A stretch of DNA of 48,509 nt from an uncultured Candidatus Peribacteria bacterium (GTDB lineage: Bacteria > Patescibacteriota > Gracilibacteria > UBA1369 > LOWO2-01-FULL-3): positions 1-48,509 of the forward strand of contig CAYVBX010000008.1 of NCBI GenBank assembly GCA_964449945.1. Reading direction: 5' to 3'. The notes beneath the pieces are model-generated. The model saw nothing but the letters and a program-made list of their open reading frames with translations, searched no databases and had not been told where the DNA came from. A program made the position numbers and the translations under genes. Positions 12,119 to 48,444 of this stretch are shown piece after piece; position 1 is the first letter of the stretch, and each line of letters opens with the position of its first letter.

Positions 12119-12424
12119 CTAGATTTTACCTCTAATATAAGCGATATTTTCAATTAGCTGTTCCCGTGAATTTTTTGCCTCCTCTTGAGCAATTGCCTCA
12201 ATATCAATATTTTTTTCTTTATAAAACTTGTCTAATTCCTCATCTGAATTAAGTTTCTCCCATTCAGAAACTTCTTCATCACTCATAATAGAACGAAGTC
12301 TCAAAAGAATTCGATTTTCAAGATTTGAAAAGATTTTTTCAAATAATTTTTCTTTTTCTTCAGGACTAATTTCATCAAGTCCAATATCTGAAAAAAATTT
12401 TTTTAATATGATTTCTTTATGCAT
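12119..12424 (-). CDS. Small acidic helical protein, tandem paralog 2
   Basis: 101 aa that clearly aligns with the adjacent 102-aa ORF (IGLDEISPEEKEKLFEKI vs IGLSDLPLEEKEKRFQEM; IENIAYI vs IADMAYI). Starts 3 nt after the upstream stop. Confidence 0.65.
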   Translation of the reverse strand: MHKEIILKKFFSDIGLDEISPEEKEKLFEKIFSNLENRILLRLRSIMSDEEVSEWEKLNSDEELDKFYKEKNIDIEAIAQEEAKNSREQLIENIAYIRGKI

Positions 12425-12427
12425 TTT

Positions 12428-12736
12428 TTATTTGTTAAGTTTTGACTCTATATAAGCCATATCAGCTATTATGCTTTCACGATATTCTTGAGCAACTTCA
12501 TTTACAATTGAAGGAAGATCAATACTTCTTTTCTGAAAAAAATCAAGAAATTCTTCTTCAGGAATCTTATCAAATATTTCCCGATCTTCTTCTGAAAGTA
12601 TTTCCCATATTCTCAAAAAAACACCTTGCTCAATAATATCTTGCATTTCTTGAAATCGTTTTTCCTTTTCTTCTAAAGGCAAATCTGAAAGACCAATTTT
12701 GTCAAATAAGTCTTCATAATTAAAATCTAATTTCAT
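12428..12736 (-). CDS. Small acidic helical protein, tandem paralog 1
   Basis: 102 aa, paralogous to 12119-12424. Lies 16 nt downstream of the 1352-aa ORF. Confidence 0.65.
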   Translation of the reverse strand: MKLDFNYEDLFDKIGLSDLPLEEKEKRFQEMQDIIEQGVFLRIWEILSEEDREIFDKIPEEEFLDFFQKRSIDLPSIVNEVAQEYRESIIADMAYIESKLNK

Positions 12737-12752
12737 ATTTTTTTGTTGTTAT

Positions 12753-15700: not shown

Positions 15701-16811
15701 TTCTAAGCCCATTTTGAATATCGACAGAAAGAGCTTCCTGCCAAGTTCTTAAATGATCAATTACATTTTGTCGAGTATTATCTTGTTGATATACATGATT
15801 TGCATCATAGGCAACTCTCAAATTAAACAATCTTGCAAGCCTTCGAGTCCTTTCTTGGCCAGCAGTTGTACCGGTTCCAATTGGCCCAAGTTTCGTTCTA
15901 ATTTGGTTTATCAAAGCACTTCTTTCGGGACTAACAAAAGAGGCCGTAATTGGACCATCAGTAATCAGCAAATCAACTAGCTCGCTATGATCAAATGATA
16001 TTAGCTCGCTTGTAAGATTATCCCTAAGTTGATCAACAAATAGCCTAGCTTGATTGATTTCTCTTTGCTCTATTGAATCTCTCCCCCCCCAAGCGTTATA
16101 TTGTTTTTCAGACTCTCTAATTATATTAGATATAAGTACTCCTCTAGCAGGGGTTAAATCAATAGCTAAGATACTATCAATGGTTCTTTCTATTTCGGCT
16201 GGTGAAAGATCAGTATAATTTGGGACAGAAGCAAATCCAACCACTTCAGCAAATGCAATAGCACGGTCTTGGTTTATCAAAATATCCGGAAAAACATAAT
16301 TATTATTATAAAAACCAACAAGAATATCTCGAATTTGAGTGGTATTAAGAGGTCTTCCACCATTTCGTTCATAAGCCTCTTGCAAATAAGTCGTAAAAAT
16401 TTTCCGCCTAAGATTACGCATTATTATATCTGGGTCAGTACCTGGTCGAGAATTAATTTCATTTTCAAGATCAGAAATTCTCTCTATCAATGCCCTTCTT
16501 GTAATAGTATTCACTTTTTGTCTCAGTTTCTTTCTATCATTATTAAGACGATCTATTTCAGCTTGATCAGTTGTGTCAACCGTTAAGTTGTTTATAGCAT
16601 TAATGATGCTGGGTAGTTGTTCAGAAAAATCAATAGAGGAAATAGCACTTGCAGTACTTGTCGTACGCAATATATTCAGTATGTTATTCCTAACGGCTGG
16701 ATTATTCAATTCATCAACTAATTTATCCTTTATCCGATTTTCCGCATCTTGACTTTCCGAATTATCATTAGAGAGTAATTGTTCTAAATCTTTATTTTCA
16801 ATATTTGCCAT
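12753..16811 (-). CDS. Giant (1352 aa) membrane protein with a Pro-rich linker and LysM-like C-terminal domain
   Basis: Uninterrupted 4 kb ORF with no signal peptide. A hydrophobic hairpin GASTCMGVALTGAMLGAPALAIGTFATAGAVL lies at about nt 13795-13945. A third TM helix LTGVALGTFMGVGLPGIFAL lies at about nt 13240-13310. The linker PPVPVEGGGISPDPVPAPSPEPLPVPFP follows. The C-terminal GIWQSIANKL...NPILNGNLDLVRTGQEINI resembles a LysM fold pattern. Confidence 0.8.
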   Translation of the reverse strand: MANIENKDLEQLLSNDNSESQDAENRIKDKLVDELNNPAVRNNILNILRTTSTASAISSIDFSEQLPSIINAINNLTVDTTDQAEIDRLNNDRKKLRQKVNTITRRALIERISDLENEINSRPGTDPDIIMRNLRRKIFTTYLQEAYERNGGRPLNTTQIRDILVGFYNNNYVFPDILINQDRAIAFAEVVGFASVPNYTDLSPAEIERTIDSILAIDLTPARGVLISNIIRESEKQYNAWGGRDSIEQREINQARLFVDQLRDNLTSELISFDHSELVDLLITDGPITASFVSPERSALINQIRTKLGPIGTGTTAGQERTRRLARLFNLRVAYDANHVYQQDNTRQNVIDHLRTWQEALSVDIQNGLRNRINELIDNNTEDFTANPDALNRIISSYISEITENGLYGDNENERMTNAYRFFYSELTAGTIATPATLPIEEADLRNVIEQFLNQAPSIIDSHNAHINRINTVVRDRTYEAIRNQALGLHVPFTNDDVDNASERALQRLLTTDAFTLDEIAQVLYLPLNRRDRTDIVRDIASKIRALRTEIRFAENPRKRLSDTEINTMLIPFMPNCEKIVEELMRVDPTYGALNKYEYRLQLETVLNNPNTNHVLYLKFKEIAGKYGNITDISMLQDISMHRALQNHGYTLNLTQVMNAGFRPNPLLRSFIQNNIVSFNDCLSGYNNIYDYIRERYDVLRNIPEGNRSPEQNSDIELLTEINTNIQSFNDLIKDISENYRNISARPAEDRARRLYNILEKKYNTANGTATPLFVGSFPGASDMEENLAKSYKALTALNTVFVPRVEENTLVPEIDPSTGRPKMGPNGQPIMINPAEAERRPMENARKKYAKNRRNLQKWMWFSRPKQDELNDSKDDYLVAMRDYSYNQIQNEFPESDFNGSPEKIRQRQVDRRNRILELLNSERRDLFDEELRAQTTQEGFIRRGFNKFRNGWRNKKGLRLIGASTCMGVALTGAMLGAPALAIGTFATAGAVLRGVSTYMGWTAGWEGIRNRFGKTKRLDRTKISAMTPDQIREAMAAQTTLALSEKGQPFDIRTGVSPANMPMDVLVRPVSDKSFDQAENPNLNAMFGEAYKETTAKPSDTNYYRQASSRELFANQNQRMRNLIDNRFATGTSMMEVLNEVYSEEAKLMDAIEKREVAIRKSNTKKHLTGVALGTFMGVGLPGIFALKDWLFSEAPPVPVEGGGISPDPVPAPSPEPLPVPFPSDEAKLIIPDKVSSPYVGNADLLVDPTLQIDETPGIWQSIANKLDMTHGTRVIDSNPAIKQALLNENPILNGNLDLVRTGQEINISRNTAQMIADSLNTSRLYSDTYTADHVLTRLHSPWPDANMK

Positions 16812-17226: not shown

Positions 17227-19842
17227 ATGAAATTTCAAATCGATTCACAAATTTTTGAAAAGTTTCCAGATTTAAAAATTGGTTTAATAATTGTTAAATC
17301 ATTTTCAAATAATAGAAGAATTTCTGCAACTGAAAGCCTTCTTCGCGGTATTCAGGCTCAGAAACAAAAAGAATATTTCAAAATTGATTTAGATTCAATT
17401 CCAAAAATTTCTGTTTGGAATAACGCTTATGAAAATCAAAATTTAGACACAAAAGCTTTCCTTCCAAAAATTAAGGAATTATATAAAAATATTCAGCTTG
17501 GAAATGAAATACAACATGAAAATCCACTTTCAGATATTGCCAATTATTATTCAATAAAGCATTTATTACCCATTTCTTTTAAAGATTTAAATTGGCTTTG
17601 TGGAGACCTTCGCCTTACTTTCACGCAAGGGAATGAGCCATTTAGGGCAATCAATTCAATAGAGGTTCAGTCTGCTGAAGAAAAAGAAATTGCATATATC
17701 GATGAAGGGGGAATTGTTCAAAGATATTGGAATTATTTAGAGTGCGAAAGAACAAAGCTTACAAATACAACAGTGAATTCAGCTATTTTTGTTGAGGATT
17801 TAAGCAAAATGAGCACACAAGACTTTGCTGATATTTTAAGCGAAATTGCAAATAACATTCAGAAATATTTAGGTGGAGAAATTGTAGTTAATGTTTTAAA
17901 TATGGATTTAAAAGAGGCAGATCTTGGAGTTGAGGGCAGGAAAAATGTCGACGATTCAAAAATATCGGCACAAGAAAGAGCTTTTTACATGAACCGTATT
18001 TCAAGACAAAATTTAGAGAAAGCAAAAAAAACAATTACTTTTTCCTCAAATAAAACAAGCGAAATTCCCCTTATGCGATCAGTACAAGAAAAAAAACCAA
18101 TTCAAAACAATAAAATTTCTTTAAGTGATGAAAATACTGTAAAAGCAAAAATTGGAAAAATATTAGAAAAAGCATTGATGAAAACCTTTTACAACGCACC
18201 CGAACTTAACATAAAAATTGACTACCCAAAACAAAAAGATAACGGAGATTATTCAAGCAATATCGCAATGCAAATAGCTAAGGAAAAAGGCATAAACCCT
18301 TCAATTATTGCAAATAACATTATCGAAAACATAAGCACAGAGGATTTGATAGAAAGAGTGGAAGTAGTAGATCCGGGATTTATAAATTTTTATCTTTCAA
18401 AAGAATTTTTATTAAAAGAAATTGATGAAGTTTTAGAAAAAAAAGATAATTTTGGAAAATCATCTCTCGGACAAGGAAAAACAATTGTAATGGATTATTC
18501 TTCTCCAAATATTGCAAAACCATTTGGAATTCATCATATAATTACAACTATTTTAGGACAATCTTTATATAATATTTACAGAGAAATTGGTTTTAAAACA
18601 GTTTCTGTAAATCATATTGGAGATTATGGTACACAATTTGGAAAATTAATCGTTGCCTTTAAAAAATGGGGAGATAAAACTAAAATTGAAGAAAACCCAA
18701 TAGATGAACTAACAAAGCTTTATGTTAAATTTCATGAAGAAGCAGAAAAGGATGAGGCGCTTGATGATGAAGCAAGAGCTGAGTTTAAAAAATTTGAAGA
18801 AGGAGACGCAGAAAATAGAAAACTTTGGAAATGGTTTGTTGATGAAAGCTTGAAAGTTTTTCAAAAAACATATGAAAGACTTGGTTTTATGCATTTTGAT
18901 TATATTCAAGGTGAAAGTTTTTACGAAGATAAGCTTGATGATATTTTAAAAGAAGGAAAGCAAAGAGGTATTTTTGTTGAAGGAGAGGAAGGATCTTTTG
19001 TAGTAAATTTTGATGACGAAACACTACCACCTCTACTTGTTCAGAAAAAAGATAATTCAACACTTTATTCAACCAGAGATTTTTCTGCATTAAAATATCG
19101 TATCGACACATGGCATCCATTTAAGATTTTTTACATTATTGGAGCTGAGCAAACACTTCAGTTCAAACAATTATTCAAGGCATCCGAAAGATTTCCTTGG
19201 TATCATGGAGAGGGAATTCATATTCCATACGGAAGGATGAGCTTTAAAGATAAAAAATTCTCAACAAGAAAAGGAGATTTTATAAAACTTGATGAGGTTT
19301 TGGACGAAGCCTGTGAAAGGGCAAAACAAATTAGTGAAGAAAAAAGTAAAGACAAGTCAAACATTGAAAAACAGGCTAAAATTATTGGAATTGGAGCCGT
19401 AAAATACAATGTTTTAAGTCAAAATCGAATGACAAATATTGTTTTCGATTGGGATAAAATGCTTTCTTTAGAAGGAAATAGTGCTCCTTATTTGCAATAC
19501 ACTTACGCAAGGGCGAAAAGTATTATTAGAAAAAAAGATGAAGCAATTTTAAAGACATCAGAAAATATGGACACGAGCAAAAAAATAGAAGAAACAATTC
19601 GATTACTTCCATTATATAAAGAAAAACTAATTGATTCTTGTGAAGACTTTAGACCAAACATACTATCAAATTATCTTTATGAACTAGCATCAGCATATAA
19701 TTCTTTATATAATGTTGTTCCAATTCTTAGTAATTCAGATGAAAATGAACGACAGCTACTTATTAAAGTTTCTGAAGCTGTATCTCAGATAATAAAAAAC
19801 GGATTACATTTACTAGGAATAGAAGTACTTGAGGAAATGTAA
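17227..19842 (+). CDS. argS: Arginine--tRNA ligase fused to an N-terminal B3/4 (PheRS-beta-like) domain
   Basis: 871 aa. Residues 1 to about 230 match the stand-alone B3/4 domain pattern (FPDLKIGLIIV..., YYSIKHLLPISFKDL, IAYIDEGGIVQRYWNYLECERTKLT). From about residue 300 it is a canonical ArgRS: an N-terminal additional domain, the HIGH-type PFGIHHI, MSFK..STRKG, and a DALR anticodon-binding domain ending in ...LEEM. Confidence 0.9.
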   Translation: MKFQIDSQIFEKFPDLKIGLIIVKSFSNNRRISATESLLRGIQAQKQKEYFKIDLDSIPKISVWNNAYENQNLDTKAFLPKIKELYKNIQLGNEIQHENPLSDIANYYSIKHLLPISFKDLNWLCGDLRLTFTQGNEPFRAINSIEVQSAEEKEIAYIDEGGIVQRYWNYLECERTKLTNTTVNSAIFVEDLSKMSTQDFADILSEIANNIQKYLGGEIVVNVLNMDLKEADLGVEGRKNVDDSKISAQERAFYMNRISRQNLEKAKKTITFSSNKTSEIPLMRSVQEKKPIQNNKISLSDENTVKAKIGKILEKALMKTFYNAPELNIKIDYPKQKDNGDYSSNIAMQIAKEKGINPSIIANNIIENISTEDLIERVEVVDPGFINFYLSKEFLLKEIDEVLEKKDNFGKSSLGQGKTIVMDYSSPNIAKPFGIHHIITTILGQSLYNIYREIGFKTVSVNHIGDYGTQFGKLIVAFKKWGDKTKIEENPIDELTKLYVKFHEEAEKDEALDDEARAEFKKFEEGDAENRKLWKWFVDESLKVFQKTYERLGFMHFDYIQGESFYEDKLDDILKEGKQRGIFVEGEEGSFVVNFDDETLPPLLVQKKDNSTLYSTRDFSALKYRIDTWHPFKIFYIIGAEQTLQFKQLFKASERFPWYHGEGIHIPYGRMSFKDKKFSTRKGDFIKLDEVLDEACERAKQISEEKSKDKSNIEKQAKIIGIGAVKYNVLSQNRMTNIVFDWDKMLSLEGNSAPYLQYTYARAKSIIRKKDEAILKTSENMDTSKKIEETIRLLPLYKEKLIDSCEDFRPNILSNYLYELASAYNSLYNVVPILSNSDENERQLLIKVSEAVSQIIKNGLHLLGIEVLEEM

Positions 19843-30762: not shown

Positions 30763-31716
30763 ATGAAAAAAATACTAATAACAGGAGCAACTGGACAAAT
30801 CGGAACAGAGCTAATTCTTGAACTAAGAAAGAAATATGGCGTAGAAAATGTTATTGCAGTAGGGCATTCAAGGCCTGCAAGTGGAGATCTTTCAATAGGT
30901 CCTTTCGAATCTTGTGATGTCACAAATTTAAAAGAACTAGAAACTTTATTTCAAAAACATAGTCCAGACACAATTTTCCATTTAGTTGGAATCCTATCTG
31001 CAACCGGTGAAAAAAATCCAGATTTAGCTTGGAATGTAAACATGAACGGACTAAAAAATGTATTAGATTTGAGTCTAAAATATTCAGTAAAAAAGATTTT
31101 TTGGCCAAGCTCAATCGCTTCATTCGGTCCAAACACACCAAAAGAAAACACCCCACAACACACAATTTTAGAGCCCACAACAATGTACGGAGTCACAAAA
31201 GTAGCTGGAGAATTACTTTGTCAGTATTATTTCAAAAAATACAACTTAGACATAAGAAGCATTAGATACCCCGGAATCATAAGCTACAAAACATTACCCG
31301 GAGGAGGCACAACAGATTACGCAGTCGCAGTTTATTTTGAAGCACTTGAAAAAAAATCATACGAATTTTTTGTAAACGAAGACACAGTTTTGCCAATGAT
31401 GTATATGCCAGATGCAGTATCCGCAACAATCGATTTAATGGAAGCCCCAATCGAAAATATTAGTATTAGAACAAGCTACAATCTCACAGCAATGAGCTTT
31501 TCGGCAAAAGAACTTGCAGAAGAAGTAAAAAAACATATTCCAGATTTCGCATATTCTTTTAATCCAGATTCAAGACAAGAAATTGCAAATTCATGGCCAA
31601 AATCAATAGACGATAGTTTTGCAAAAAAAGATTTTAATTGGATTCCAAAATATGATCTCACAAAAATGTCAGAAGATATGATAGAAAATATCAAAGCCTT
31701 GAACACGAAAATCTAA
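30763..31716 (+). CDS. Extended short-chain dehydrogenase/epimerase, L-threonine 3-dehydrogenase-like
   Basis: 317 aa with the Rossmann motif ITGATGQIG and catalytic YGVTK (YxxxK). The N-terminal KILITGATGQIGTELILELRKKYGVENVIA is typical of the SDR-type TDH/UDP-sugar epimerase subgroup. Confidence 0.7.
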   Translation: MKKILITGATGQIGTELILELRKKYGVENVIAVGHSRPASGDLSIGPFESCDVTNLKELETLFQKHSPDTIFHLVGILSATGEKNPDLAWNVNMNGLKNVLDLSLKYSVKKIFWPSSIASFGPNTPKENTPQHTILEPTTMYGVTKVAGELLCQYYFKKYNLDIRSIRYPGIISYKTLPGGGTTDYAVAVYFEALEKKSYEFFVNEDTVLPMMYMPDAVSATIDLMEAPIENISIRTSYNLTAMSFSAKELAEEVKKHIPDFAYSFNPDSRQEIANSWPKSIDDSFAKKDFNWIPKYDLTKMSEDMIENIKALNTKI

Positions 31717-32573
31717 ATTTTCTCACATAAATAATAAGCATCACGATTAGTTCCCTTCCGGATGCTTTTTATTGTACCAGGAAATAAAATCAGTAAATTT
31801 TTTTTATTAGGAGCCTTATATTTTTTCAAATTATCTTCAGCAATCGTTTCTGAAGGCCTTATATCCATAAAAGACTTGTAGTTTTTCAAATAATTTATTG
31901 TCTTAAAATCTTTAACAATTTGTCTTTCTAAAGTTTTTAGTTTTATAGGAGATTTTTTAGAAATTTTTCGCTTAAAATTTGCCATTTCAAGTTCTTGCAA
32001 CAAAATTTTCGCACAAGAAACTGAAATATCTTTAGTACTTTTATTCTTATGCCTCCCACACTCAACAACAATTCCAATTTTACCTTTTGGAAGACAATTA
32101 AGAGTTGTGCCTTTCAAAAATCTTGCAAAATTTTGAACATCATATTCAACTGGAAGTTTCGAAATAATTTCTCGACTTTTTTTATTCGGATAAAAACAAA
32201 TTGAAAACGGAACAGAAGCCTTACTCGTGGAATGTAAATCCAAAACAACATCCATTTTTTTTAGTAATTTCATTATTTCCATCGCTCTTTTGTACTCAAA
32301 AGAATTAAAATCAAAACCTTCCGGGTAGTCAGATTTTTTTTCAAAAAAAATTCTATTCATATCATATTTAATTCCCCGAATCTCTCTCTTGGATGCCAAA
32401 TAATTTGCATTAATCAAAAAAACTTTTCCTGAATAAAGAGGATTTTTCTTAAAAAACTTTATTAAAGCATCATGTGCATATTCACCAGCAGGCTCATCCC
32501 CATGCACTCTAGCTAAAATTGCAACAGAAAGTCCTTTTTTCTTTCCTTCAATAATTTTTACATTTTTAATCAT
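31713..32573 (-). CDS. Succinylglutamate desuccinylase/aspartoacylase (AstE/AspA) family zinc deacylase
   Basis: 286 aa. ILARVHGDEPAGEYA (HxxE zinc motif) and VVLDLHST are typical of this M14-related family. It overlaps the convergent SDR gene by 4 nt. Confidence 0.7.
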   Translation of the reverse strand: MIKNVKIIEGKKKGLSVAILARVHGDEPAGEYAHDALIKFFKKNPLYSGKVFLINANYLASKREIRGIKYDMNRIFFEKKSDYPEGFDFNSFEYKRAMEIMKLLKKMDVVLDLHSTSKASVPFSICFYPNKKSREIISKLPVEYDVQNFARFLKGTTLNCLPKGKIGIVVECGRHKNKSTKDISVSCAKILLQELEMANFKRKISKKSPIKLKTLERQIVKDFKTINYLKNYKSFMDIRPSETIAEDNLKKYKAPNKKNLLILFPGTIKSIRKGTNRDAYYLCEKI

Positions 32574-32632
32574 AATATCCTCTTGATTTTATGAATTTTA
32601 TGAGATAAATAAACAATCGTTTTAAAGAAAAT

Positions 32633-34192
32633 ATGCACCCTAGAACATCAAATATTATACCAGATTTTGCATGTGAATTAAAGCCTCAAGGCTATTTTCA
32701 AGATGATATCGTGAGATTTAAAGATTTAAGCAATAACGAAGAATATTCAATTATCTTTGATAGTAACGGAGAATTTGAAAGATTAAATACGGAAGTTTTT
32801 GATTTGGTTTTAGAAAATAGAACCTTTCTATCTCAACATACAGATTTTTTGGATAATACTATAAAGAGGCCAAAAAATGGAGGGATAGTACATTTTTGCA
32901 ATGTTCTTGAGGTAAATATTACAGGAAAAGGTGGGGGAATAAATCCGGGAATAAAGGGAATTTCTTCATATTTATTTAGACAAGGTCCAATGCTCTCTTC
33001 AAAAGATGGTCTTATTATCAGTAAAGAAGCTGTTTTAAAGGCAAGGGAAAACCTAAGATATTTAAATGAAAAAGGCATAGATGTGATAAAAGAAGAAAAT
33101 GTTTTTGGAATAGAAATAGATGAAAATTCAACAATAATTAGAGATAAAGGAATTGAAGAATTACAAGGAATTATGGAAGAAAGACACGAAACCTATAAGT
33201 TTTTACCATTTATTCATACAGAAAAAATGGCAAAAACTGCAGAAAAAATTGGATTTGACTATACGGCAGACATAACAGCCACCAGCTTATTAACCGATAA
33301 ATTTTATGTTTTAAAAACATTACCAAATTTTTCTGTTAAAACAATTTTTGGAAAAGAGTTAAATAGTGTAAATGATTTAGAGTTGGCACGAATGAATCCC
33401 GTTATTAGTGCTCAAGAATTCGTTGTTTTAAAGTTGCGAGATGGTGCTTCTGGACTCGGAGTTCGTTTTGTAAAAAACAATTATTCAGAAGTGTTAAAAA
33501 ACCTAGTAGAATTAGGAGAGCCAGATGAAAGGGGAGTTTTAAAATACACCGTAAGAATAGAAGAATGTTTGAAAACTTTATCATCTCCAAGCGCAGGCTT
33601 ATACATTTCAGAAAATGAAATAGTATTTTTAGGTTTTTCAGACCAGTTTTTTGAACAAGCAGAAGATAGCTCAAAACCTCCCAAAGAACACATGGGCAAT
33701 ATAGGTCCTTCTAGTTATGAAAATTTGATTAAAACAACATCTGTAAAAGTCGGAGAATTTGCCAGAAAATTAAACTATACTGGCTTTCTGGGAGTAGATT
33801 ATGTTTTAATTGAAAACCATGATAAATCTGTAGAACTTCGAGTTGCAGAAATTAATCCACGACTAGGGGGTCCATCAACAGCTTATCGAATCGCTTATGA
33901 TCATCCTCTTGCTATATCCAAAAATCAATCATTTACAGGTTTAGGTTTTTCTGGAGGAAACTTAGATATCTCAATAGATCACCAAAAAAAAAGTATCTAT
34001 CATTTGGACAAAGATTTAAATAAAATTTTAACGAGTGTTTCAAGTGACATCTTCGCTGTTATTACGAATATGCTTCCTATTGAATATGGCAGAATACAGA
34101 TTGCAGTTTTTGGAAAAAACCCAGAGAATATAAGAAAAGCTTATAGAAAAGCACAGAATTATTTCTGTCCAAACCATAAATCTAATATATAA
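32633..34192 (+). CDS. ATP-grasp ligase with an about 230-aa N-terminal domain of unknown function
   Basis: 519 aa. FVVLKLRDGASGLGVRFV and VAEINPRLGG are classic ATP-grasp elements. The N-terminal third has no motif I recognise. Confidence 0.7.
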   Translation: MHPRTSNIIPDFACELKPQGYFQDDIVRFKDLSNNEEYSIIFDSNGEFERLNTEVFDLVLENRTFLSQHTDFLDNTIKRPKNGGIVHFCNVLEVNITGKGGGINPGIKGISSYLFRQGPMLSSKDGLIISKEAVLKARENLRYLNEKGIDVIKEENVFGIEIDENSTIIRDKGIEELQGIMEERHETYKFLPFIHTEKMAKTAEKIGFDYTADITATSLLTDKFYVLKTLPNFSVKTIFGKELNSVNDLELARMNPVISAQEFVVLKLRDGASGLGVRFVKNNYSEVLKNLVELGEPDERGVLKYTVRIEECLKTLSSPSAGLYISENEIVFLGFSDQFFEQAEDSSKPPKEHMGNIGPSSYENLIKTTSVKVGEFARKLNYTGFLGVDYVLIENHDKSVELRVAEINPRLGGPSTAYRIAYDHPLAISKNQSFTGLGFSGGNLDISIDHQKKSIYHLDKDLNKILTSVSSDIFAVITNMLPIEYGRIQIAVFGKNPENIRKAYRKAQNYFCPNHKSNI

Positions 34193-34195
34193 AAA

Positions 34196-34528
34196 ATGAG
34201 AATTAACGAGATAATAATCAAAACAGAAGGTATCAAATTTAGTTTAGAAAACGAAAACCAAAAAGAAATCGCCAGAGCAACTCTTTATATTTTATCCAAC
34301 GATTTACATAAAGAACCATTCGGCCTTTTAGAAGACCTTTTTGTAAGTGAAGAAGAAAGAGGAAAGGGGATTGCAACAGATTTGATTAAGCAAGTTATCC
34401 TAAAAGCCAAAGAAAATTCTTGCTACAAGCTAATTGCAACTTCAAGATACGAAAGAGAGCATGTTCATAATATCTATAAAAAACTCGGTTTTACAGATTA
34501 CGGAAAAGAATTCCGAATAAATTTATAA
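34196..34528 (+). CDS. GNAT family N-acetyltransferase (minimal, 110 aa)
   Basis: Acetyl-CoA motif A region ERGKGIATDLIKQVILKAKE and a C-terminal YKKLGF. Starts 3 nt after the ATP-grasp stop. Confidence 0.75.
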   Translation: MRINEIIIKTEGIKFSLENENQKEIARATLYILSNDLHKEPFGLLEDLFVSEEERGKGIATDLIKQVILKAKENSCYKLIATSRYEREHVHNIYKKLGFTDYGKEFRINL

Positions 34529-40071: not shown

Positions 40072-40860
40072 ATGACAAATGTAAATTCAAAAGGAGAACA
40101 AAAGTTAATTAGCTTGTTAGTATTAGCACTTTGTGTGTTAGTTGTAGCGATTTCGTTTGTTTATCTTTATAAATACACTGATGTTTTTGAAAAAGATAAA
40201 ACCGAAACTTCACAAGAAAACAATGAACTTGCCGAAATAAATTTGTCAGTGCAATTAGAAGAAGCTGAGGGCGAAAATGTTTTAGGAGAAACCGAAATCG
40301 ACGAAAATATAGAATTGGGAGAAGCAGAAGAATTAGCTTATGAAAAAAGTGAAGCAGAGTTGAAGGAAGAAGAATTTATTGAAAATGATAAGAAAACAAT
40401 CTTGGAAAAAGAGAAAATAGCCGAAAAAATCGAGACTAAATCTAATGAAATAATCGCGAGTTTTACAAAAGAAAAAGAGATAATTGAGGATTTGTGCAAT
40501 GAAGGGCCAAAGCCACTTGAAACAGGGAAAATTGTATATCCAGTAGAAGAAAAATATAGCCACTTAATATATCTAGGACAAGTATTTACAGCTGTTAAAT
40601 GCGGGGAAGAACGATTATCTGATTTATGGGGTGTTAGTGACGAAAATTATACAATTGGGTCAAAAATTGAATTAAATAGTAATCCAAGCAAAGATTTAAT
40701 TGAAACTTTTTCGCTTTTAAAATACTCCTGCGAAGATTCAGAAAATTTAGATCAATGTATGATTTGGTCTAGAAGTGGTGATATTTCAACAAAATCACTT
40801 TTACTTTTAGAACCATTTGTGGATAAAATCAAAAAAGATGATTGTATAAACTGCAGATAA
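40072..40860 (+). CDS. Membrane-anchored protein with a Glu-rich linker and a Cys-rich C-terminal domain ending in DCINCR
   Basis: 262 aa with TM helix LISLLVLALCVLVVAISFVYL and a long acidic linker. The C-terminal ~125 aa are paralogous to the C-terminus of 42198-43313. Confidence 0.65.
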   Translation: MTNVNSKGEQKLISLLVLALCVLVVAISFVYLYKYTDVFEKDKTETSQENNELAEINLSVQLEEAEGENVLGETEIDENIELGEAEELAYEKSEAELKEEEFIENDKKTILEKEKIAEKIETKSNEIIASFTKEKEIIEDLCNEGPKPLETGKIVYPVEEKYSHLIYLGQVFTAVKCGEERLSDLWGVSDENYTIGSKIELNSNPSKDLIETFSLLKYSCEDSENLDQCMIWSRSGDISTKSLLLLEPFVDKIKKDDCINCR

Positions 40861-42004: not shown

Positions 42005-42010
42005 CTTAAA

Positions 42011-42061
42011 TTTTTATGACTATTCAACAAGGAATTTACCGCCATTTTAAGGGCAAAAACT
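42011..42061 (+). repeat. Copy A of a 51-bp direct repeat (49/51 identical to 44534-44584)
   Basis: TTTTTATGACTATTCAACAAGGAATTTACCGCCATTTTAAGGGCAAAAACT versus the 44534 copy. The two mismatches are at 42030 and 42039. Confidence 0.9.
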
Positions 42062-42197: not shown

Positions 42198-43313
42198 ATG
42201 AAAAAAATTACTTGTGGATTTATTGTCGTGATGATTCTTAGTCAAAATATTGCATTAGCTAGCTTTAAAGATGTATCAGAAAGTTATTATCTACATAACT
42301 CAATTAATTGGCTAAAAGAACAGGGAATTGTAGAAGGATATTCAGATGGAACTTTTAAGCCTAATAACCTTGTAAATAGAGCAGAGTTTTTAAAAATGAT
42401 TTATGAAACAATTGGCATGAAAAATCAGAAATCTTCAGTTCCGTTTTCCGACTTTAAGTCAAATGAATGGTATTCTAAATACATCATCGAAGCTTATGCA
42501 GATGGAATAATTCAAGGATATTCAGATAATACTTTTCGACCAGAAGATAAGATAAATTTTGCAGAAGCATTGAAAATTATTGGAAATGCTTTTTTAGATG
42601 TTGATAAAGAATTTGGAAATGGCTCAACTTATACTCCTTGTAAAACAGACTGGAGGGCTTTTAATGGAGTTGATACAAACACTTGGTATTGGAAATATGT
42701 ATATGTTTTAGACCAGTATTGTATATTAGATTTTAATACAAGTGCTAATGTTTGGGAGTTAAGAGGGACAGACCCTGTGGGGTATTTAATAGATAAAAAT
42801 CCTGGAGCTTATGTTAATCGAGCTGAAATGGCAGAGATTATTTATCGAACAAAAGCAGTAAGGGATTTTAATATGGAAAAATTTTTAGAATACAAGACAT
42901 TTCCTTTTAGTATTTCCAAGATAGAAAAAGATTCTCCTCTTTGTTTAGATGGTCCATTTGCGACTGATATAGGATTTCCAAGATACCCTGTTTCAGAATC
43001 ATATTCTCATTTATCTTCCTCTCTTGGCGAAATATTTACTGCTTACGAATGTGGAGGAGACCGTTTAGAAAATATATGGGGAGTTGAAGATGGGGCTTAT
43101 ATCTTAGGTCTTTATATAAAAATAGCGGACAAAACAAGTATATTATTTACAAATACTTTAAAGTCGTCAGGATTCATATGCAATGAACGAATGCCAAGTT
43201 GGGAAAACTGTAAAGATTGGGTTTTAACAGAGGCTATTGAGCTAAAAGAATTATTAAAATTGAGAAATTTTTCAAAAGATATTATTTTTTCAGATTGTAT
43301 AAATTGTGGATAA
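42198..43313 (+). CDS. Secreted SLH-domain protein with a Cys-rich C-terminal domain ending in DCINCG
   Basis: 371 aa with a signal peptide. Two clear SLH repeats are present (FKDVSESYYLHNSINWLKEQGIVEGYSDGTFKPNNLVNRAEFLKMIYE and FSDFKSNEWYSKYIIEAYADGIIQGYSDNTFRPEDKINFAEALKII). The C-terminal ~125 aa are paralogous to the 40072 protein. Confidence 0.8.
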   Translation: MKKITCGFIVVMILSQNIALASFKDVSESYYLHNSINWLKEQGIVEGYSDGTFKPNNLVNRAEFLKMIYETIGMKNQKSSVPFSDFKSNEWYSKYIIEAYADGIIQGYSDNTFRPEDKINFAEALKIIGNAFLDVDKEFGNGSTYTPCKTDWRAFNGVDTNTWYWKYVYVLDQYCILDFNTSANVWELRGTDPVGYLIDKNPGAYVNRAEMAEIIYRTKAVRDFNMEKFLEYKTFPFSISKIEKDSPLCLDGPFATDIGFPRYPVSESYSHLSSSLGEIFTAYECGGDRLENIWGVEDGAYILGLYIKIADKTSILFTNTLKSSGFICNERMPSWENCKDWVLTEAIELKELLKLRNFSKDIIFSDCINCG

Positions 43314-44497: not shown

Positions 44498-44533
44498 TTT
44501 ATTTCTGTTATTGTGAGGCTAATTTTAATCTTA

Positions 44534-44584
44534 TTTTTATGACTATTCAACCAGGAATTTATCGCCATTTTAAGGGCAAAAACT
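44534..44584 (+). repeat. Copy B of the 51-bp direct repeat, covering the start of the intact DUF1653 gene
   Basis: See 42011-42061. This copy continues into a full-length ORF. Confidence 0.9.
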
Positions 44585-44760
44585 ACGAAGTGATTGGAAT
44601 AGCCCATCACAGCGAAACACTTGAAGAGCTTGTCGTTTACCGCGCCCTTTACAGCTCTCCCGACTTCGGCGAAAACGCCCTTTGGGTCCGACCAGTCAAA
44701 ATTTGGGAGCAGGAAGTGGAATTTGAAGGGAGGAAGTTTAAGAGGTTTGAAAAGGTTTAA
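44539..44760 (+). CDS. DUF1653 family protein
   Basis: 73 aa. YRHFKGKNYEVIGIAHHSETLEELVVYRALY is the hallmark pattern of DUF1653 as I recall it. Confidence 0.7.
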   Translation: MTIQPGIYRHFKGKNYEVIGIAHHSETLEELVVYRALYSSPDFGENALWVRPVKIWEQEVEFEGRKFKRFEKV

Positions 44761-44796: not shown

Positions 44797-46107
44797 TCAA
44801 AAAAACACTTTTATATTTTCTAAATTCTCAGCTAGAAAACTATCTAAATTTATTGATTGATTTAATATGTAATCAGATGGATTTTTTTCTGTTTTTCCAA
44901 GGATTTTTCCATATGCATCATAAATTAAATTATCATTTATTTTCATATAAAAGACAGGTATTTGACCATGTAATAAAGAATTGACTTCATATTTAAGAAG
45001 TCCTTCCATATCCAAGCTACAATTAAGATAAATCTTATTTTGTAAAAGTTCTTGCCTAAAAAATTTTTCAATTGAAAAACTTTCTTGTAAAAAAATATGT
45101 GGGAAAAAAATTTTTTGTTGCAAAATAAAATATATTGAAGTGGGTCTAAGAATAATTCTAGTGTAAGACTTTGATTTTTTTATTTCGGTCAACAAATTAT
45201 CTTTATTTAATTGTAATTGTTTTGAGCCAGTTTCAAATCCAGAAATCAACATTGCTAAGAAGTCTTTAATTTGAATTCGCTTATTTTGCAACTTCGGCCT
45301 ATTAAAATAATGATTCTTGCTAATTGACACCCAATTAATTTTCGGATTTGTATTATCAAATTTTAGTATTGGCACGAAATAACTTTTTATTTTTTCACTT
45401 TCTCCATTTAATGACCCGATATTTATATCTTTACTTTCTGTAATTAATCCTGTGTAAAAAATTGAATATTTTTCATCAATTATTTCAGGTACAGCACAGG
45501 TTTCTATATCAAAAAATAGTGGATATTGTTTATTACATATTACATTTTCAATATGCTGGTCTATTGTCCTAAAAAACAGTAAAAACGGAATTATTCTACC
45601 AAAATTAAAATAATACTTTTCTATATCATTTATGTTTTCAAAATCATTTGAAGCCGAAATGAAGTCTCTTACAAAAAGATTATTATAACATTCGAATTTA
45701 ACAAAATACTCGGAAAATTTTGGATCAAGAATTTTTAATAATTCGGGTATGAATGATTCACAGTCAAATTTTGCGGGAAAAACAATTTTATTGCCAATTT
45801 TCGTTTTAATCAAACCATTTGGGTGTATATCTCCCAAAAATTCAATATTGGAATGGAAATCTTTTATTAATTTTTTTTCAGATTTATATAAATACTTTAT
45901 GAAATTCCAGACAATCTTATCAACAATAAAATTTTGTTTTGTTGATATTTTAGGGAAATAACGAGAGCTTACAAACAAAGGTAAATACCAATCTTTTAGT
46001 TGTTTGAATATAAATTTTTTTGTGTTTTCAGTAAAATCAAAAAAGGAAGTCCGAAAAAATTTATTTTCCAGACTTCCTTCCATTTCTATTTCCAAGTCTG
46101 ATTTCAT
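44797..46107 (-). CDS. Stand-alone LanM-type (DUF4135-like) lanthipeptide dehydratase domain protein, with no LanC cyclase domain
   Basis: 436 aa. Motifs: FLGDIHPNG...IVFPAKF; IDQHIENVICNKQYPLFFDIET (D-x-H-x-x-N then D at +12; nt 45499-45564); TGLITES..NIGSLNG; ISGFETG; TRIILRPTSIY (R-x5-T; nt 45130-45159); GQIPVFY. The order and spacing match the kinase/lyase domain of class II lanthipeptide synthetases. Confidence 0.75.
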   Translation of the reverse strand: MKSDLEIEMEGSLENKFFRTSFFDFTENTKKFIFKQLKDWYLPLFVSSRYFPKISTKQNFIVDKIVWNFIKYLYKSEKKLIKDFHSNIEFLGDIHPNGLIKTKIGNKIVFPAKFDCESFIPELLKILDPKFSEYFVKFECYNNLFVRDFISASNDFENINDIEKYYFNFGRIIPFLLFFRTIDQHIENVICNKQYPLFFDIETCAVPEIIDEKYSIFYTGLITESKDINIGSLNGESEKIKSYFVPILKFDNTNPKINWVSISKNHYFNRPKLQNKRIQIKDFLAMLISGFETGSKQLQLNKDNLLTEIKKSKSYTRIILRPTSIYFILQQKIFFPHIFLQESFSIEKFFRQELLQNKIYLNCSLDMEGLLKYEVNSLLHGQIPVFYMKINDNLIYDAYGKILGKTEKNPSDYILNQSINLDSFLAENLENIKVFF

Positions 46108-46114
46108 ACAAACC

Positions 46115-46258
46115 CTATTCTATACAAGTACCAGAACCACAACCCTTGGTCGAAGCTGCGTAAGTAACCTCTTTAAAAAGTAACTCAGCTTCTTGAAAAT
46201 CCTTAACGGCAACTGCTTTATCATAAACATTGTTTTCAAAATCATTCAAGTTTTCCAT
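46115..46258 (-). CDS. Unannotated 47-aa candidate lanthipeptide precursor MENLNDFENNVYDKAVAVKDFQEAELLFKEVTYAASTKGCGSGTCIE
   Basis: The ATG lies 2 nt after the upstream stop, and the TAG lies 7 nt before the dehydratase ATG. An acidic, helical leader-like N-terminus is followed by a C-terminal 16 residues holding 5 Ser/Thr and 2 Cys in (S/T)xxC spacing. Confidence 0.6.
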   Translation of the reverse strand: MENLNDFENNVYDKAVAVKDFQEAELLFKEVTYAASTKGCGSGTCIE

Positions 46259-46260
46259 AT

Positions 46261-46725
46261 TTATTTTGTTAATAAATAATAGGATGACATTTTTTTCGGA
46301 CTCATTTCATTTACAATATCCATAAGCTCTTTTTCATCATCAGAAAGCTCGATTGTGATTTTTGATGCATTGTTGCTTTTTAAAAAATTCAACGCATGAG
46401 TAAATAATAGTTTTCTTACTTCAGAAGAATTTGGAGATTTTTCTGTCGAGTCATTTAGCAACAATACTAATATTTCCCCTCGATTATTTTGATTAAGAAC
46501 ATTTACAAATCCCAAAAAATCAATGTCTCCTGTATTTTCTCTACATACAAAATAAGAAAAATCAGAGTGTGTATTCATAATTCTTTCCATTACATGCTTT
46601 TTCATTATTTCCAAATCCGAAGTGTAATAATCTAAACCTAAGTTTTTGTTCAAATACTGATAATGAATACTTAGTAGTTCAGCAATTTTATGAGAGTCTG
46701 TAACAAGAGCTTTTTCTATTATCAT
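46261..46725 (-). CDS. Hypothetical protein, possibly a divergent GNAT-fold acyltransferase; first gene of the RiPP-like operon
   Basis: 154 aa. The layout (FLGFVNVL...GEILVLLLN...VRKLLFTHALNFLKSNNASKITIEL) is GNAT-like, but the acetyl-CoA Q/RxxGxG/A motif is not evident. Confidence 0.4.
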   Translation of the reverse strand: MIIEKALVTDSHKIAELLSIHYQYLNKNLGLDYYTSDLEIMKKHVMERIMNTHSDFSYFVCRENTGDIDFLGFVNVLNQNNRGEILVLLLNDSTEKSPNSSEVRKLLFTHALNFLKSNNASKITIELSDDEKELMDIVNEMSPKKMSSYYLLTK

Positions 46726-46784
46726 ATAATGAAGTTGGTTAAAATTACCTACAATATATATTTTGGCTCAAAAAACCACAAATC

Positions 46785-46799
46785 TTTTTTTTTTTTTTT
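46785..46799. repeat. Homopolymeric T15 (A15 on the minus strand) tract in the promoter region of the RiPP-like operon
   Basis: 15 consecutive T at 46785-46799, 60 nt upstream (minus-strand sense) of ATG 46725. Confidence 0.9.
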
Positions 46800-46956
46800 G
46801 AAATGACAAAAGTAGAAAAAGATTAATTACTAAGAAAATCCTAATTTATTTAGGGTTTTCTAAAATGTAATTATAGTTTACAAATAGTATTACTAAAGTT
46901 GTATTACGCTTGTATTTTGGTAATTTTATTAAAAATAAAAATCATAACCTTCGAGT

Positions 46957-46976
46957 AGTATACTTTAGAGTATACT
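46957..46976. promoter_or_regulatory. Two copies of the 8-bp palindrome AGTATACT spaced 12 bp centre to centre
   Basis: AGTATACT at 46957-46964 and 46969-46976, each self-complementary. They lie between the mazF stop (46989) and the next operon. Confidence 0.4.
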
Positions 46977-46988
46977 TATTTCTTATTT

Positions 46989-47321
46989 CTAAAACACAAA
47001 AGACAATTGTTCTTTAATCTTTCTAAACTGCATCATTGAAACACTACTCACTCTTTTTATTAACCTAGTTTTATCAATAGTTCTCATCTGAAAAAGCAAA
47101 ATCAATGAATCAATTTTAAGACCGCTAATGTTTTTTTCAAGAAAGAAAGTTGTGAAAAAACCTTTTCCTGAGGTGTTTGAAGTAATTGGCGCGATTATTA
47201 CGGTATTCAGATTTTTATTTAAATCATTGTTTTGAATAACTATTCCTGGTCTTATTCCGGACTGTTCATGTCCTTTAATCGGATTTAAATTAGCCAAATA
47301 TTATTCACCCTGTTTAATCAT
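46989..47321 (-). pseudogene. mazF: MazF/PemK-family toxin interrupted by an in-frame TAA at codon 7
   Basis: From ATG 47321 the frame reads MIKQGE-TAA-YLANLNPIKGHEQSGIRPGIVIQNN.... This matches the canonical MazF N-terminus (M.K.GEIYLA.LNP..G.EQ.G.RP) except for the stop at 47301-47303. The track ORF restarts at TTG 47297. Confidence 0.6.
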
Positions 47322-47322
47322 A

Positions 47323-47553
47323 TTAATCGATTTTACTTTGTATTAAATCCCAATTATCCTCATTGGGCAGATCGTCAAATTTCATTTTTGCAAGTTTTTT
47401 CAAATCACTATTCAGTTTTTTCTTAAACATTTCTTTGATGGCTTTTTCAACCAGTTGACTTTTTGAAATACCAGAATTTAAGCTAATTTTCTCAAGAGTC
47501 TCATTAAGTGACGGCATAATAGTAATGGATATTCTCTCTTTTATATTACTCAT
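47323..47553 (-). CDS. Ribbon-helix-helix (CopG-like) antitoxin
   Basis: 76 aa. ERISITIMPSLNETLEKISLNSGISKSQLVEKAI has an RHH pattern (beta strand followed by two helices). Its stop lies 1 nt before the toxin ATG. Confidence 0.7.
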   Translation of the reverse strand: MSNIKERISITIMPSLNETLEKISLNSGISKSQLVEKAIKEMFKKKLNSDLKKLAKMKFDDLPNEDNWDLIQSKID

Positions 47554-47607
47554 CTGTTCGTATTAATTGATATTACCTTAAAGTTTGCGTAAAAACTCAA
47601 GGCACTT

Positions 47608-48444
47608 TCAAACATTCATTCTACTAAGCGGACTCACCGTATTTGAGATCCCGCTTCGCGAAACTTTTGTATAAAGCTGGGTAGTCTGAATATCCCGATG
47701 CCCCAAAATTTCCTGAATGTATCTAAGGTTTGTGCCGTTCTCTAAGATATGCGATGCAAAGCTATGCCGAAGACAATGGAACGAGGCAAGCTTGTTTGCA
47801 CCTGTCTTAAATACTGCCCTACGAAAGACAATCTGAAGGGTCCGACTAGTCAAAATTCCACCACGATTACTCGGAAACAAAAACTCATTTTTATCCCGAT
47901 TTTGCGTAAAATTTTTAAGCTCATCTCTCATTGTTTCCGGCAAAATTGTAATTCTATTACGATTGCCCTTTGCCTGTCTGACATTGATTATTTTTTCTGC
48001 AAAATCCAGATCTGAAATTCTCAGTTTAACAACTTCACTAACCCGAAGACCGCTCCCATAAGCTAATGAGATAGCAAGCCGATGTTTTGTGTTTTTGAAC
48101 GATTGAATAATTCTAAAAATTTCCTCACGACTCAAAACAACGGGAAGTTTCAATGTCGTTTTAGCATGTCGCACATTCATTTTTTTCTCATAACCAATAA
48201 CATCGCGATAGAAAAACTTCACAGAATTTATGTAGAGATTGATAGTTTGCGGAGAAAGTTTTTTGTCGAGCAGATGGGAGACAAAGGACTTAAAACTAAA
48301 TTCATCATAGTTCTTAAGCGAAAATTCCTTAAACTCAAAATATTTTTTCGCATAGGCAAAATAATTAGCCTGAGTATAACGACTATAATTTCGAATCTTC
48401 ATCTCAAGTTTTAATAGTTGAAGGCACTCATCAATCTCAGCCAT
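47608..48444 (-). CDS. Tyrosine recombinase/integrase (XerC/D-like)
   Basis: 278 aa. An N-terminal SAM-like core-binding domain is followed by the catalytic residues: GLRVSEV (R), HCLRHSFASH (H-x-x-R) and LGHRDIQTTQLYTKV (H...Y). Confidence 0.85.
   Translation of the reverse strand: MAEIDECLQLLKLEMKIRNYSRYTQANYFAYAKKYFEFKEFSLKNYDEFSFKSFVSHLLDKKLSPQTINLYINSVKFFYRDVIGYEKKMNVRHAKTTLKLPVVLSREEIFRIIQSFKNTKHRLAISLAYGSGLRVSEVVKLRISDLDFAEKIINVRQAKGNRNRITILPETMRDELKNFTQNRDKNEFLFPSNRGGILTSRTLQIVFRRAVFKTGANKLASFHCLRHSFASHILENGTNLRYIQEILGHRDIQTTQLYTKVSRSGISNTVSPLSRMNV

Follow-up and report, generated by a model that had tools for sequence, protein, structure and literature searches.

We describe a candidate biosynthetic operon for a peptide that is made on the ribosome and modified after translation (a RiPP) in a 48,509-nucleotide stretch of DNA (contig CAYVBX010000008.1, hereafter the window). 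Three tightly spaced genes on its minus strand encode, in order, a GNAT-fold protein, a 47-residue peptide and a 436-residue enzyme with a DUF4135 domain (Table 1). Two nucleotides separate the stop codon of the GNAT-like gene from the ATG of the peptide gene, and seven separate the end of the peptide gene from the ATG with which the open reading frame (ORF) of the enzyme begins. An earlier note, made from the sequence alone, had described this last ORF as a minimal class II lanthipeptide (LanM-type) dehydratase without a cyclase; it had overlooked the cassette as a unit, the core of the precursor peptide, an RNA hairpin that follows the precursor gene, and the change of the CylM lysine K274 to Pro111.

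The motifs that the note had listed are all present in the enzyme, in the order given: FLGDIHPNG at residue 90, IVFPAKF at 108, IDQHIENVICNKQYPLFFDIET at 182, TGLITES at 219, GSLNG at 231, ISGFETG at 288, TRIILRPTSIY at 316 and GQIPVFY at 381. The Pfam profile PF13575 (DUF4135) matched residues 91-388 over profile positions 53-377 of 378 with an E value of 1.2e-26 and a score of 94.3 bits, above the gathering threshold (cut-off 29), and by these profile statistics the resemblance to the LanM dehydratase domain far exceeds what chance would give. The NCBIfam LanM model TIGR03897 scored 105.5 bits, below its curated cut-off of 304, and aligned over model positions 210-490 of 932 only. A phmmer search of all PDB sequences retrieved only CylM (5dzt, E 4.3e-12) and LicM2 (6st5, E 7.8e-8). 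The phmmer alignment placed D183, H185, N188 and D200 on CylM D347, H349, N352 and D364, R317 and T323 on R506 and T512, and D93 and H95 on D252 and H254, in agreement with the note's reading of the D/H/N/D spacing as that of the LanM catalytic residues and of R-x5-T as the elimination pair. An AlphaFold2 (AF2) model built from a 56-sequence alignment had a mean pLDDT of 92.8 and a pTM of 0.92, and was compact and confident up to the final residue. A Foldseek comparison of this model with the PDB recovered just CylM (E 4.7e-16, query TM 0.60) and LicM2 (E 2.1e-15), with the next hit at E 0.04. Profile-profile alignment of the clade of short enzymes described below with 45 LanM N-terminal domains gave a probability of 100% (E 7.7e-45, 421 columns) and reached the end of the LanM dehydratase domain. 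Neither a missing profile or structural match nor a misalignment with the catalytic residues of CylM, which the note had named as grounds for abandoning the assignment, was found.

The protein is shortened at its N terminus, as the note had said. The GDxH P-loop lies at residue 92 here and at a median position of 104 in the clade, compared with 251 in CylM and a median of 216 in 33 full-length LanMs, so that the window protein is ~120-160 residues shorter N-terminally. The capping-helix region consists of three helices (residues 4-84), the C terminus lies ~50 residues beyond the IPVFY motif, and the complete enzyme has 436 residues compared with 625 for the dehydratase domain of CylM. DUF4135 is the sole domain of the complete protein and the elimination residues are retained, as in the stand-alone dehydratases termed 'LanMD'; judged from its sequence and predicted fold, the ORF corresponds to the dehydratase half of a class II lanthipeptide synthetase, complete and standing alone.

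A HMMER search of 1.84 billion representative proteins returned 712 hits. Truncated entries aside, the ~70 best (E 1e-146 to 1e-14) were 397-477 residues long, and full-length LanMs of 900-1100 residues first appeared at E ~1e-13. Neighbour joining on the kinase cores taken from 130 hits grouped 59 short representatives (400-480 residues) in a single clade with no longer protein within it, and a stand-alone group of 484-545 residues sat outside. A tblastn search of plasmids found full-length LanMs only (<28% identity) and no stand-alone relatives. Just two genome records with the cassette bear a taxon, both Candidatus Saccharibacteria metagenome-assembled genomes (MAGs; L094 and L106, in our locus numbering), and one GNAT-like partner protein is annotated 'Patescibacteria group bacterium'. 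A degenerate DNA scan for the TTTxCAxGTC core gave mostly chance hits, in high-GC genomes, yet it also recovered two true cassettes in Ca. Saccharibacteria MAGs. The cassette clade appears to be tied to bacteria of the candidate phyla radiation. In one close relative (L142), an in-frame stop follows codon 77 of the DUF4135 gene, which is called as a 77-residue N-terminal piece and a 347-residue kinase core (P0067 and P0002, about 935-1210); this interruption could reflect decay, a truly split enzyme or an assembly error.

Catalytic columns were counted over 56 aligned clade members. Among the CylM residues assigned to phosphate elimination, D252, H254, R506 and T512 (PMC4550811), the equivalent of D252 is Asp in 56/56, that of H254 is His in 55/56, that of R506 is Arg in 55 and Lys in one, and that of T512 is Thr in 49 and Ser in seven; the window enzyme has all four (D93, H95, R317 and T323). 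Phosphorylation has been assigned in CylM to D347, H349, N352, D364 and K274 (PMC4550811), and here the equivalents of D347, N352 and D364, which serve as metal and base residues, are each kept in all 56 members. Because the elimination residues are conserved, we take the enzyme to be a dehydratase and not a kinase of the EmbM type. R147 (in R-E/D-F/Y-I) is invariant in the clade where LanMs keep a Glu (GW-x-E-Y/F-I). The clade alignment contains no conserved Cys and no conserved His besides H95, so the enzyme has no hidden zinc site.

The 47-residue ORF next to the enzyme gene, with which the earlier note had proposed to pair it, belongs to a set of 13 alignable, homologous small ORFs at the equivalent position upstream of clade enzymes (down to ~25% identity). 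Its leader contains the helix motif FQEAELLF and its C-terminal core reads S36-T37-K-G-C40-G-S42-G-T44-C45-I-E, in which C40, G43, T44 and C45 are nearly invariant among the 13 precursors. The precursor of L001 is MNELTGLEELKSIESELKENFFADTTKDCATGTCS, and others end in ...ELKANFFAETTTACATGTCS (L015), ...LNSETTTCCATGTCS (L106), ...MGAAPSATTCCCATGTCS (L140) and ...IGGSGESTSTCCASGTR (L011). The 11 peptides from GNAT-containing cassettes always have Ser/Thr four residues before the first Cys and again two residues after it, then Gly-Thr, and in 10/11 the second Cys follows, for a core consensus of [S/T]-x3-C-x-[S/T]-G-T-C. The leaders have in common the element G/D-Phi-x-(E/D)-Phi (GLEEL, GFLEF, GWQEF, DFQEA). 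Upstream of the enzyme genes at the two GNAT-less loci, L138 and L139, are Ser/Thr/Cys-rich peptides ending in ...PSTTCSCSDGSGCS and ...FATTCNCTTENTCTLAY. Between the window gene and its closest orthologue (L141) there are 18 synonymous and five non-synonymous codon differences, and the peptide ORF is therefore a coding gene under purifying selection. On this comparative evidence, the 47-residue ORF is the conserved precursor of the DUF4135 enzyme.

The order of GNAT-fold protein, 35-47-residue precursor and DUF4135 enzyme recurs in at least 10 unrelated genomic contexts, and the same arrangement is found beside clade members at only 25-32% identity; in L001 the cassette genes overlap. The 154-residue GNAT-fold protein of the window is 32% identical (E 2e-17) to the 145-residue protein at the equivalent position in L001, and belongs to a family of 20 members (142-158 residues) that adjoin DUF4135 in every context examined. 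The window copy has no Pfam hit, and weak hits to Acetyltransf_1 and Acetyltransf_4 occur in its relatives. Its AF2 model (pLDDT 92.7) has the GNAT alpha/beta fold and gave 213 Foldseek hits in the PDB at E<=1e-3 (best E ~1e-7, TM 0.55-0.68); the top 50 listed are all GNAT-type acetyltransferases. By inspection, the Q/R-x-x-G-x-G/A acetyl-CoA loop was not recognisable in beta4-alpha3 of 22 aligned family members, where the segment is acidic (for example SDQEE and ADNKE). The GNAT-fold partner could bind the leader or the enzyme without acetylating, could be an acyltransferase whose cofactor site is unusual, or could serve in self-protection. We also tried this protein as the missing LanM N terminus or as a cryptic cyclase and rejected both, with hhalign probabilities below 1% against LanM N-terminal and LanC domains.

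No LanC-like region was found in the window, as the earlier note had stated. A LanC-domain hidden Markov model (HMM) was trained on the last 420 residues of each of 14 full-length LanMs. Five LanMs left out of the training set scored E 1e-65 to 1e-91 with it, and the nukacin LanM of pIVK45 scored E 1.9e-46. With the same HMM, none of the six frames of the window gave a hit (best E 2.9), nor did any of 24 cassette-bearing loci (218 kb), and no WCxG or CHG motif occurs in the stop-to-stop ORFs of at least 60 residues in the window. Pfam annotation of the large ORFs of the window revealed no ABC/C39 exporter, LanP or LanB; the large ORFs outside the cassette are housekeeping genes (LysRS-type synthetase, DnaB, MurA, ArgRS, P-type ATPase, Sua5 and malic enzyme). 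Likewise, no ABC/C39, LanP or LanC genes were found near the cassette in the unrelated contexts, and in the window precursor no GG/GA site separates leader from core.

A hairpin begins 33 nucleotides beyond the precursor stop codon, within codons 9-23 of the DUF4135 ORF, with a folding energy of -22.6 kcal/mol (z = -7.9 against shuffles). Its stem is kept in L141 (4632-4697) and L142 (932-997) through four compensatory double changes and three one-sided changes with no broken pair, so the hairpin covaries while the same bases still encode protein. A comparable hairpin occurs in L013 and none was found in the other loci checked. Folding and covariation make it a probable intra-operon attenuator or partial terminator that would leave more precursor than enzyme mRNA, a reading modelled on lantibiotic operons.

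Homology, fold, conserved catalytic residues and conserved synteny are established, as are purifying selection acting on the peptide and the lack of a nearby LanC gene; building on these, we read the locus as a self-contained three-gene RiPP operon, with a GNAT-fold accessory protein, a 47-residue precursor and a minimal LanM-type dehydratase whose product acquires rings without LanC, and we give this reading a probability of about 0.5. A LanM dehydratase domain can work alone, since excised CylM(1-625) dehydrates efficiently, the excised HalM2 and NukM dehydration domains are likewise reported to dehydrate, and the stand-alone enzyme HomMD offers a natural precedent. ATP-dependent dehydration of the 47-residue peptide by the enzyme is, from the conserved residues, the probable first stage. 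The enzyme would bind the helical leader through G/D-Phi-x-E/D-Phi, phosphorylate Ser/Thr in the 12-residue C-terminal core using D183, N188 and D200, and eliminate phosphate using D93, H95, R317 and T323 to leave dehydroalanine (Dha) or dehydrobutyrine (Dhb), as CylM does. C40 and C45 would then add to the dehydro residues derived from S36 (C-4) and S42 (C'-3), which would give a small i to i+4 thioether ring and a second small ring, i to i+3. Closure would be spontaneous, or else the enzyme or the GNAT-fold partner would act as the template. We propose thioethers because the pair of Cys and the spacings of the hydroxyls are both fixed, and we favour closure independent of LanC because no cyclase lies nearby and the cassette travels as a unit; this ring-forming stage is put forward tentatively, at slightly less than an even chance. 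The hairpin would limit read-through, so that precursor mRNA exceeds enzyme mRNA; its role in the pathway and that of the GNAT-fold protein are ones that we infer.

Several observations weigh against this proposal. Conserved hydroxyl donors in the related cores are mostly Thr, and non-enzymatic cyclisation is much slower for Dhb than for Dha. The LanC search covered 5-48 kb around each cassette, and a LanC elsewhere in the genome is possible. The cassette encodes neither a protease for leader removal nor an exporter. At L138 and L139, whose enzymes are the most divergent of those examined, the GNAT-fold gene is missing, and it must therefore be accessory and not obligatory for the enzyme. Finally, the active site looks atypical in apparently dispensing with the canonical kinase Lys: K274 of CylM (in YKPK) aligns to Pro111 of the window enzyme and is Lys in only 16/56 clade members, and the equivalent of H349 varies (Asn in 28 and His in 14 of 56). 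In CylM, K274A has trace activity only, and K274A and H349A both keep a small residual activity (PMC4550811). As a tentative answer to this objection, K101, which lies eight residues past the P-loop Asp and is Lys in 52 and Arg in four of the 56 members, may substitute for K274 as a relocated Lys on the preceding strand.

The most serious alternative is a linear dehydropeptide resembling linaridins or hominicin, in which the enzyme installs only Dha/Dhb and the Cys residues stay free, form a C-x4-C disulfide, bind metal, or react later with a target. All characterised stand-alone relatives (PoyF and HomMD) produce dehydro residues and not lanthionines, neither the window nor the cassette loci yielded a cyclase, and conserved Cys/His able to form a zinc site are lacking in the clade. 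HomMD, for which the name 'LanMD' was introduced in 2025, is the proposed dehydratase for the hominicin daptide and stands alone as a DUF4135 protein in that cluster: six Ser/Thr dehydrations have been assigned, the mature peptide bears Dha/Dhb, and deletion of lanMD abolished both product and activity (PMC12749797). Like the window enzyme, it is a single-domain LanM-type dehydratase, converting Ser/Thr to Dha/Dhb on a leader-bearing precursor. Its cluster differs in having 10 genes, with DapBCDM-type enzymes, a subtilisin-type peptidase and methyltransferases, and no thioether rings reported (PMC12749797); compared by description, the cassette here has three genes, a core with conserved Cys, and taxon-named carriers of Patescibacteria type. 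PoyF, of the proteusin polytheonamide, is also a LanM-dehydratase-domain-only protein that performs dehydration, but it makes a single dehydration, on the N-terminal Thr of a precursor with an NHLP leader; its cluster is large and radical-SAM-rich, and Cys chemistry is absent. An outcome of dehydroamino acids only, which the earlier note had entertained, fits poorly with the near-invariant Cys pair in the cores. The substrates of PoyF, EmbM and HomMD are Cys-independent (EmbA has none), whereas C40 and C45 are nearly invariant here, and hydroxyls fixed at C-4 and C'-3 are the signature of ring-forming pairs. Moreover, where a short peptide holds Dha and free thiols next to each other, they tend to react at physiological pH. 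We consider a linear product unlikely.

A split class II system, in which a LanC-type cyclase or another thioether-forming enzyme encoded elsewhere acts in trans, would be compatible with our seeing only part of each genome, and split lanthipeptide enzymes exist in other classes. Against it stand the absence of LanC from the window and from ~218 kb of cassette loci in at least 10 independent contexts, and the movement of the three-gene unit between unrelated neighbourhoods, which would be unexpected if a fourth gene were required; we judge it distinctly unlikely. A kinase that stops at a phosphopeptide, as known from EmbM and phospeptin, is very unlikely, and among the alternatives of the earlier note a repurposed enzyme acting as a kinase only is unlikely because the elimination residues are conserved across the clade. 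EmbM, a cyclase-less LanM-like enzyme with a single precursor in a minimal cluster, does halt at phosphorylation, yielding phospho-Thr. Unlike the enzyme here, EmbM lacks the elimination residues and acts on a Cys-free substrate; in the clade D93, H95, R317 and T323 are conserved, as are the two Cys of the precursors. It is highly improbable that the locus is no RiPP operon at all and that the kinase/lyase acts on another protein or a small molecule, with the small ORF incidental or regulatory. The enzyme-peptide link is drawn from genes, and the arrangement of the active-site Lys is atypical, but the small ORF keeps its position, is under purifying selection and always has a Ser/Thr/Cys-rich core even across very divergent members, and the genes are tightly spaced or, in L001, overlap.

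That the ORF is a truncated or decaying lanM remnant or an assembly artefact, as the in-frame stop of L142 might suggest and as the earlier note had allowed, is effectively refuted by the identical 436-residue protein on 13 contigs with constant neighbours (ENA and JGI metagenome assemblies included), the monophyly of 59 representatives of like size, the conserved catalytic residues, the compactness of the AF2 model to its last residue, and a convergent DUF1653 gene (44539-44760, plus strand, E 5.7e-26) that ends 36 nucleotides from the enzyme stop codon.

Compared with the LanMs of known structure (CylM and LicM2), the enzyme shares the lipid-kinase-like fold of DUF4135, the residues D252/H254, D347/N352/D364 and R506/T512 in register, and an adjacent Ser/Thr/Cys-rich precursor gene; it differs in having no LanC domain, 436 residues, fewer capping helices, no conserved K274 and a variable H349. 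Unlike LanM clusters such as that of nukacin (pIVK45), the cassette includes no LanT/C39 exporter and no immunity genes. Thioether formation without LanC has a precedent in class V lanthipeptides, for which a report on examples such as triantimycins describes (methyl)lanthionine without a LanC homologue (PMC11186320). The LanK/LanY/LanX-type kinase and lyase of that class are unrelated to DUF4135, and none is present here. Nisin forms ring A from Ser3 to Cys7 and ring B from Thr8 to Cys11. The implied rings of the window peptide, i to i+4 and then i to i+3 with a Gly in the second, recall this pair, but there is one extra inter-ring residue and no sequence similarity past the spacing in a ~12-residue core, and we treat the likeness as a lead and not a finding. 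A fuller version of the proposal, possible but doubtful, is a LanC-independent lanthipeptide pathway native to candidate-phyla-radiation bacteria, in which an enzyme with a relocated Lys both dehydrates the core and templates a nisin-A/B-like bicycle aimed at, or signalling to, host bacteria. Such a pathway may need only a ~440-residue enzyme and a ~12-residue core, with or without a non-acetylating GNAT-fold partner, and may serve an episymbiont.

Table 1. Features of the cassette in the window and settings of the cassette at other loci.
Feature	Position	Strand	Evidence or context
Stand-alone LanM-type (DUF4135) Ser/Thr kinase-lyase, 436 aa, cyclase domain absent	44797..46107	-	Pfam, CylM alignment, AF2 model
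RNA hairpin, 18-bp stem, 5-nt loop, then U-run TTTTTTGATTTT	46041..46081	-	Terminator scan
Precursor peptide gene, 47 aa: MENLNDFENNVYDKAVAVKDFQEAELLFKEVTYAASTKGCGSGTCIE	46115..46258	-	Synteny, conserved core, codon differences
GNAT-fold accessory protein, 154 aa, first cassette gene	46261..46725	-	Homology, AF2, Foldseek
Presumed promoter region, 263-bp AT-rich intergenic	46726..46988	-	Gap between mazF (46989-47297) and GNAT-like gene; inferred only
L001 cassette			Between ATP-grasp/7TM-transglutaminase cluster and rplL
L011 cassette			Between uvrA and prenyltransferase gene
L013, L017 cassettes			Near secE-nusG
L015, L016 cassettes			Between tsaD and enolase gene
L140, L141, L094, L106 cassettes			Additional contexts

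A sigma-70 consensus scan of the presumed promoter region gave no convincing site. Beyond it, the neighbours of the window cassette are a MazF/RHH toxin-antitoxin pair and then a tyrosine integrase (46989-48444, minus strand), and restriction-modification and HNH genes lie just past the window edge, as seen in L005 (712-7353); in the window lineage, these surroundings resemble the margin of a mobile or defence island. An anti-phage defence module was rejected as an explanation of the cassette itself, since PADLOC returned zero hits for the cassette proteins and the neighbours of other copies are ribosomal, tRNA-synthetase or gyrase genes. The integrase/MazF context is therefore specific to the window lineage. 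In L001 (3505-9288), the cassette is divergent from four ATP-grasp genes and a 7TM-transglutaminase gene, which may form a second peptide-modification system beside the first.

The window has a G+C content of ~30% throughout, and this value and its gene content would be compatible with a genome of the Patescibacteria/Saccharibacteria type. A 52-nucleotide direct repeat (96% identity) at 42010-42061 and 44533-44584 covers the first 15 codons of the DUF1653 gene; the decayed copy of this gene start lies directly after sua5, and between the two copies lies a 2.5-kb segment that carries the genes for malic enzyme and an SLH-domain protein, a layout suggestive of an earlier insertion or rearrangement beside the cassette. 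Two predicted secreted or envelope proteins (40072-40860 and 42198-43313, both plus strand), one with SLH domains, share a ~130-residue C-terminal domain (31% identity, E 7e-17) that has no Pfam match, includes conserved Cys and ends in DCINC. The 871-residue ArgRS (17227-19842, plus strand) is an unusual fusion: an additional B3_4 domain, of a kind that normally belongs to the PheRS beta subunit or to free-standing editing-type proteins, lies at its N terminus. At 12119-16811 (minus strand), a 1352-residue ORF with no Pfam match at E<=1e-5 is followed by ORFs of 101 and 102 residues, also without matches. A 519-residue ATP-grasp protein and a truncated-looking 110-residue GNAT, with a divergent AstE/AspA-like deacylase gene adjoining (31713-34528), may be a small amide-ligase module unrelated to the cassette.

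The stand-alone, cyclase-less domain reported by the earlier note is real, but it is not new in kind: cyclase-less LanM-type enzymes as such are already known from PoyF, EmbM and HomMD ('LanMD'). Different here are a separate and sizeable clade, the smallest such enzymes, the three-gene cluster, the GNAT-fold partner, the Cys-containing cores and the atypical Lys. We found no publication on this clade in the literature searched, which excluded subscription journals. Lanthipeptide mining usually begins from the LanC domain, and another survey drops DUF4135 proteins of fewer than 500 residues. The clade, of ~59 representative clusters, was probably invisible to such LanC-based or size-filtered surveys, which would have missed it for those reasons.

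The interest of the locus lies less in the missing cyclase, which is precedented, than in the Cys-bearing precursors, the minimal enzyme, the GNAT-fold partner and the candidate-phyla-radiation host range. If our reading is true, the enzyme would be the smallest natural LanM-type dehydratase, and so a compact tool for installing dehydroamino acids, with an active site that functions without the canonical kinase Lys, and the cassette would let the need for a cyclase in forming small thioether rings be tested in a natural system. To our knowledge, very little secondary metabolism is known from Patescibacteria and Saccharibacteria. The cassette would then be one of few RiPP pathways in these bacteria, and a secreted or contact-delivered peptide could matter for the relationship between symbiont and host.

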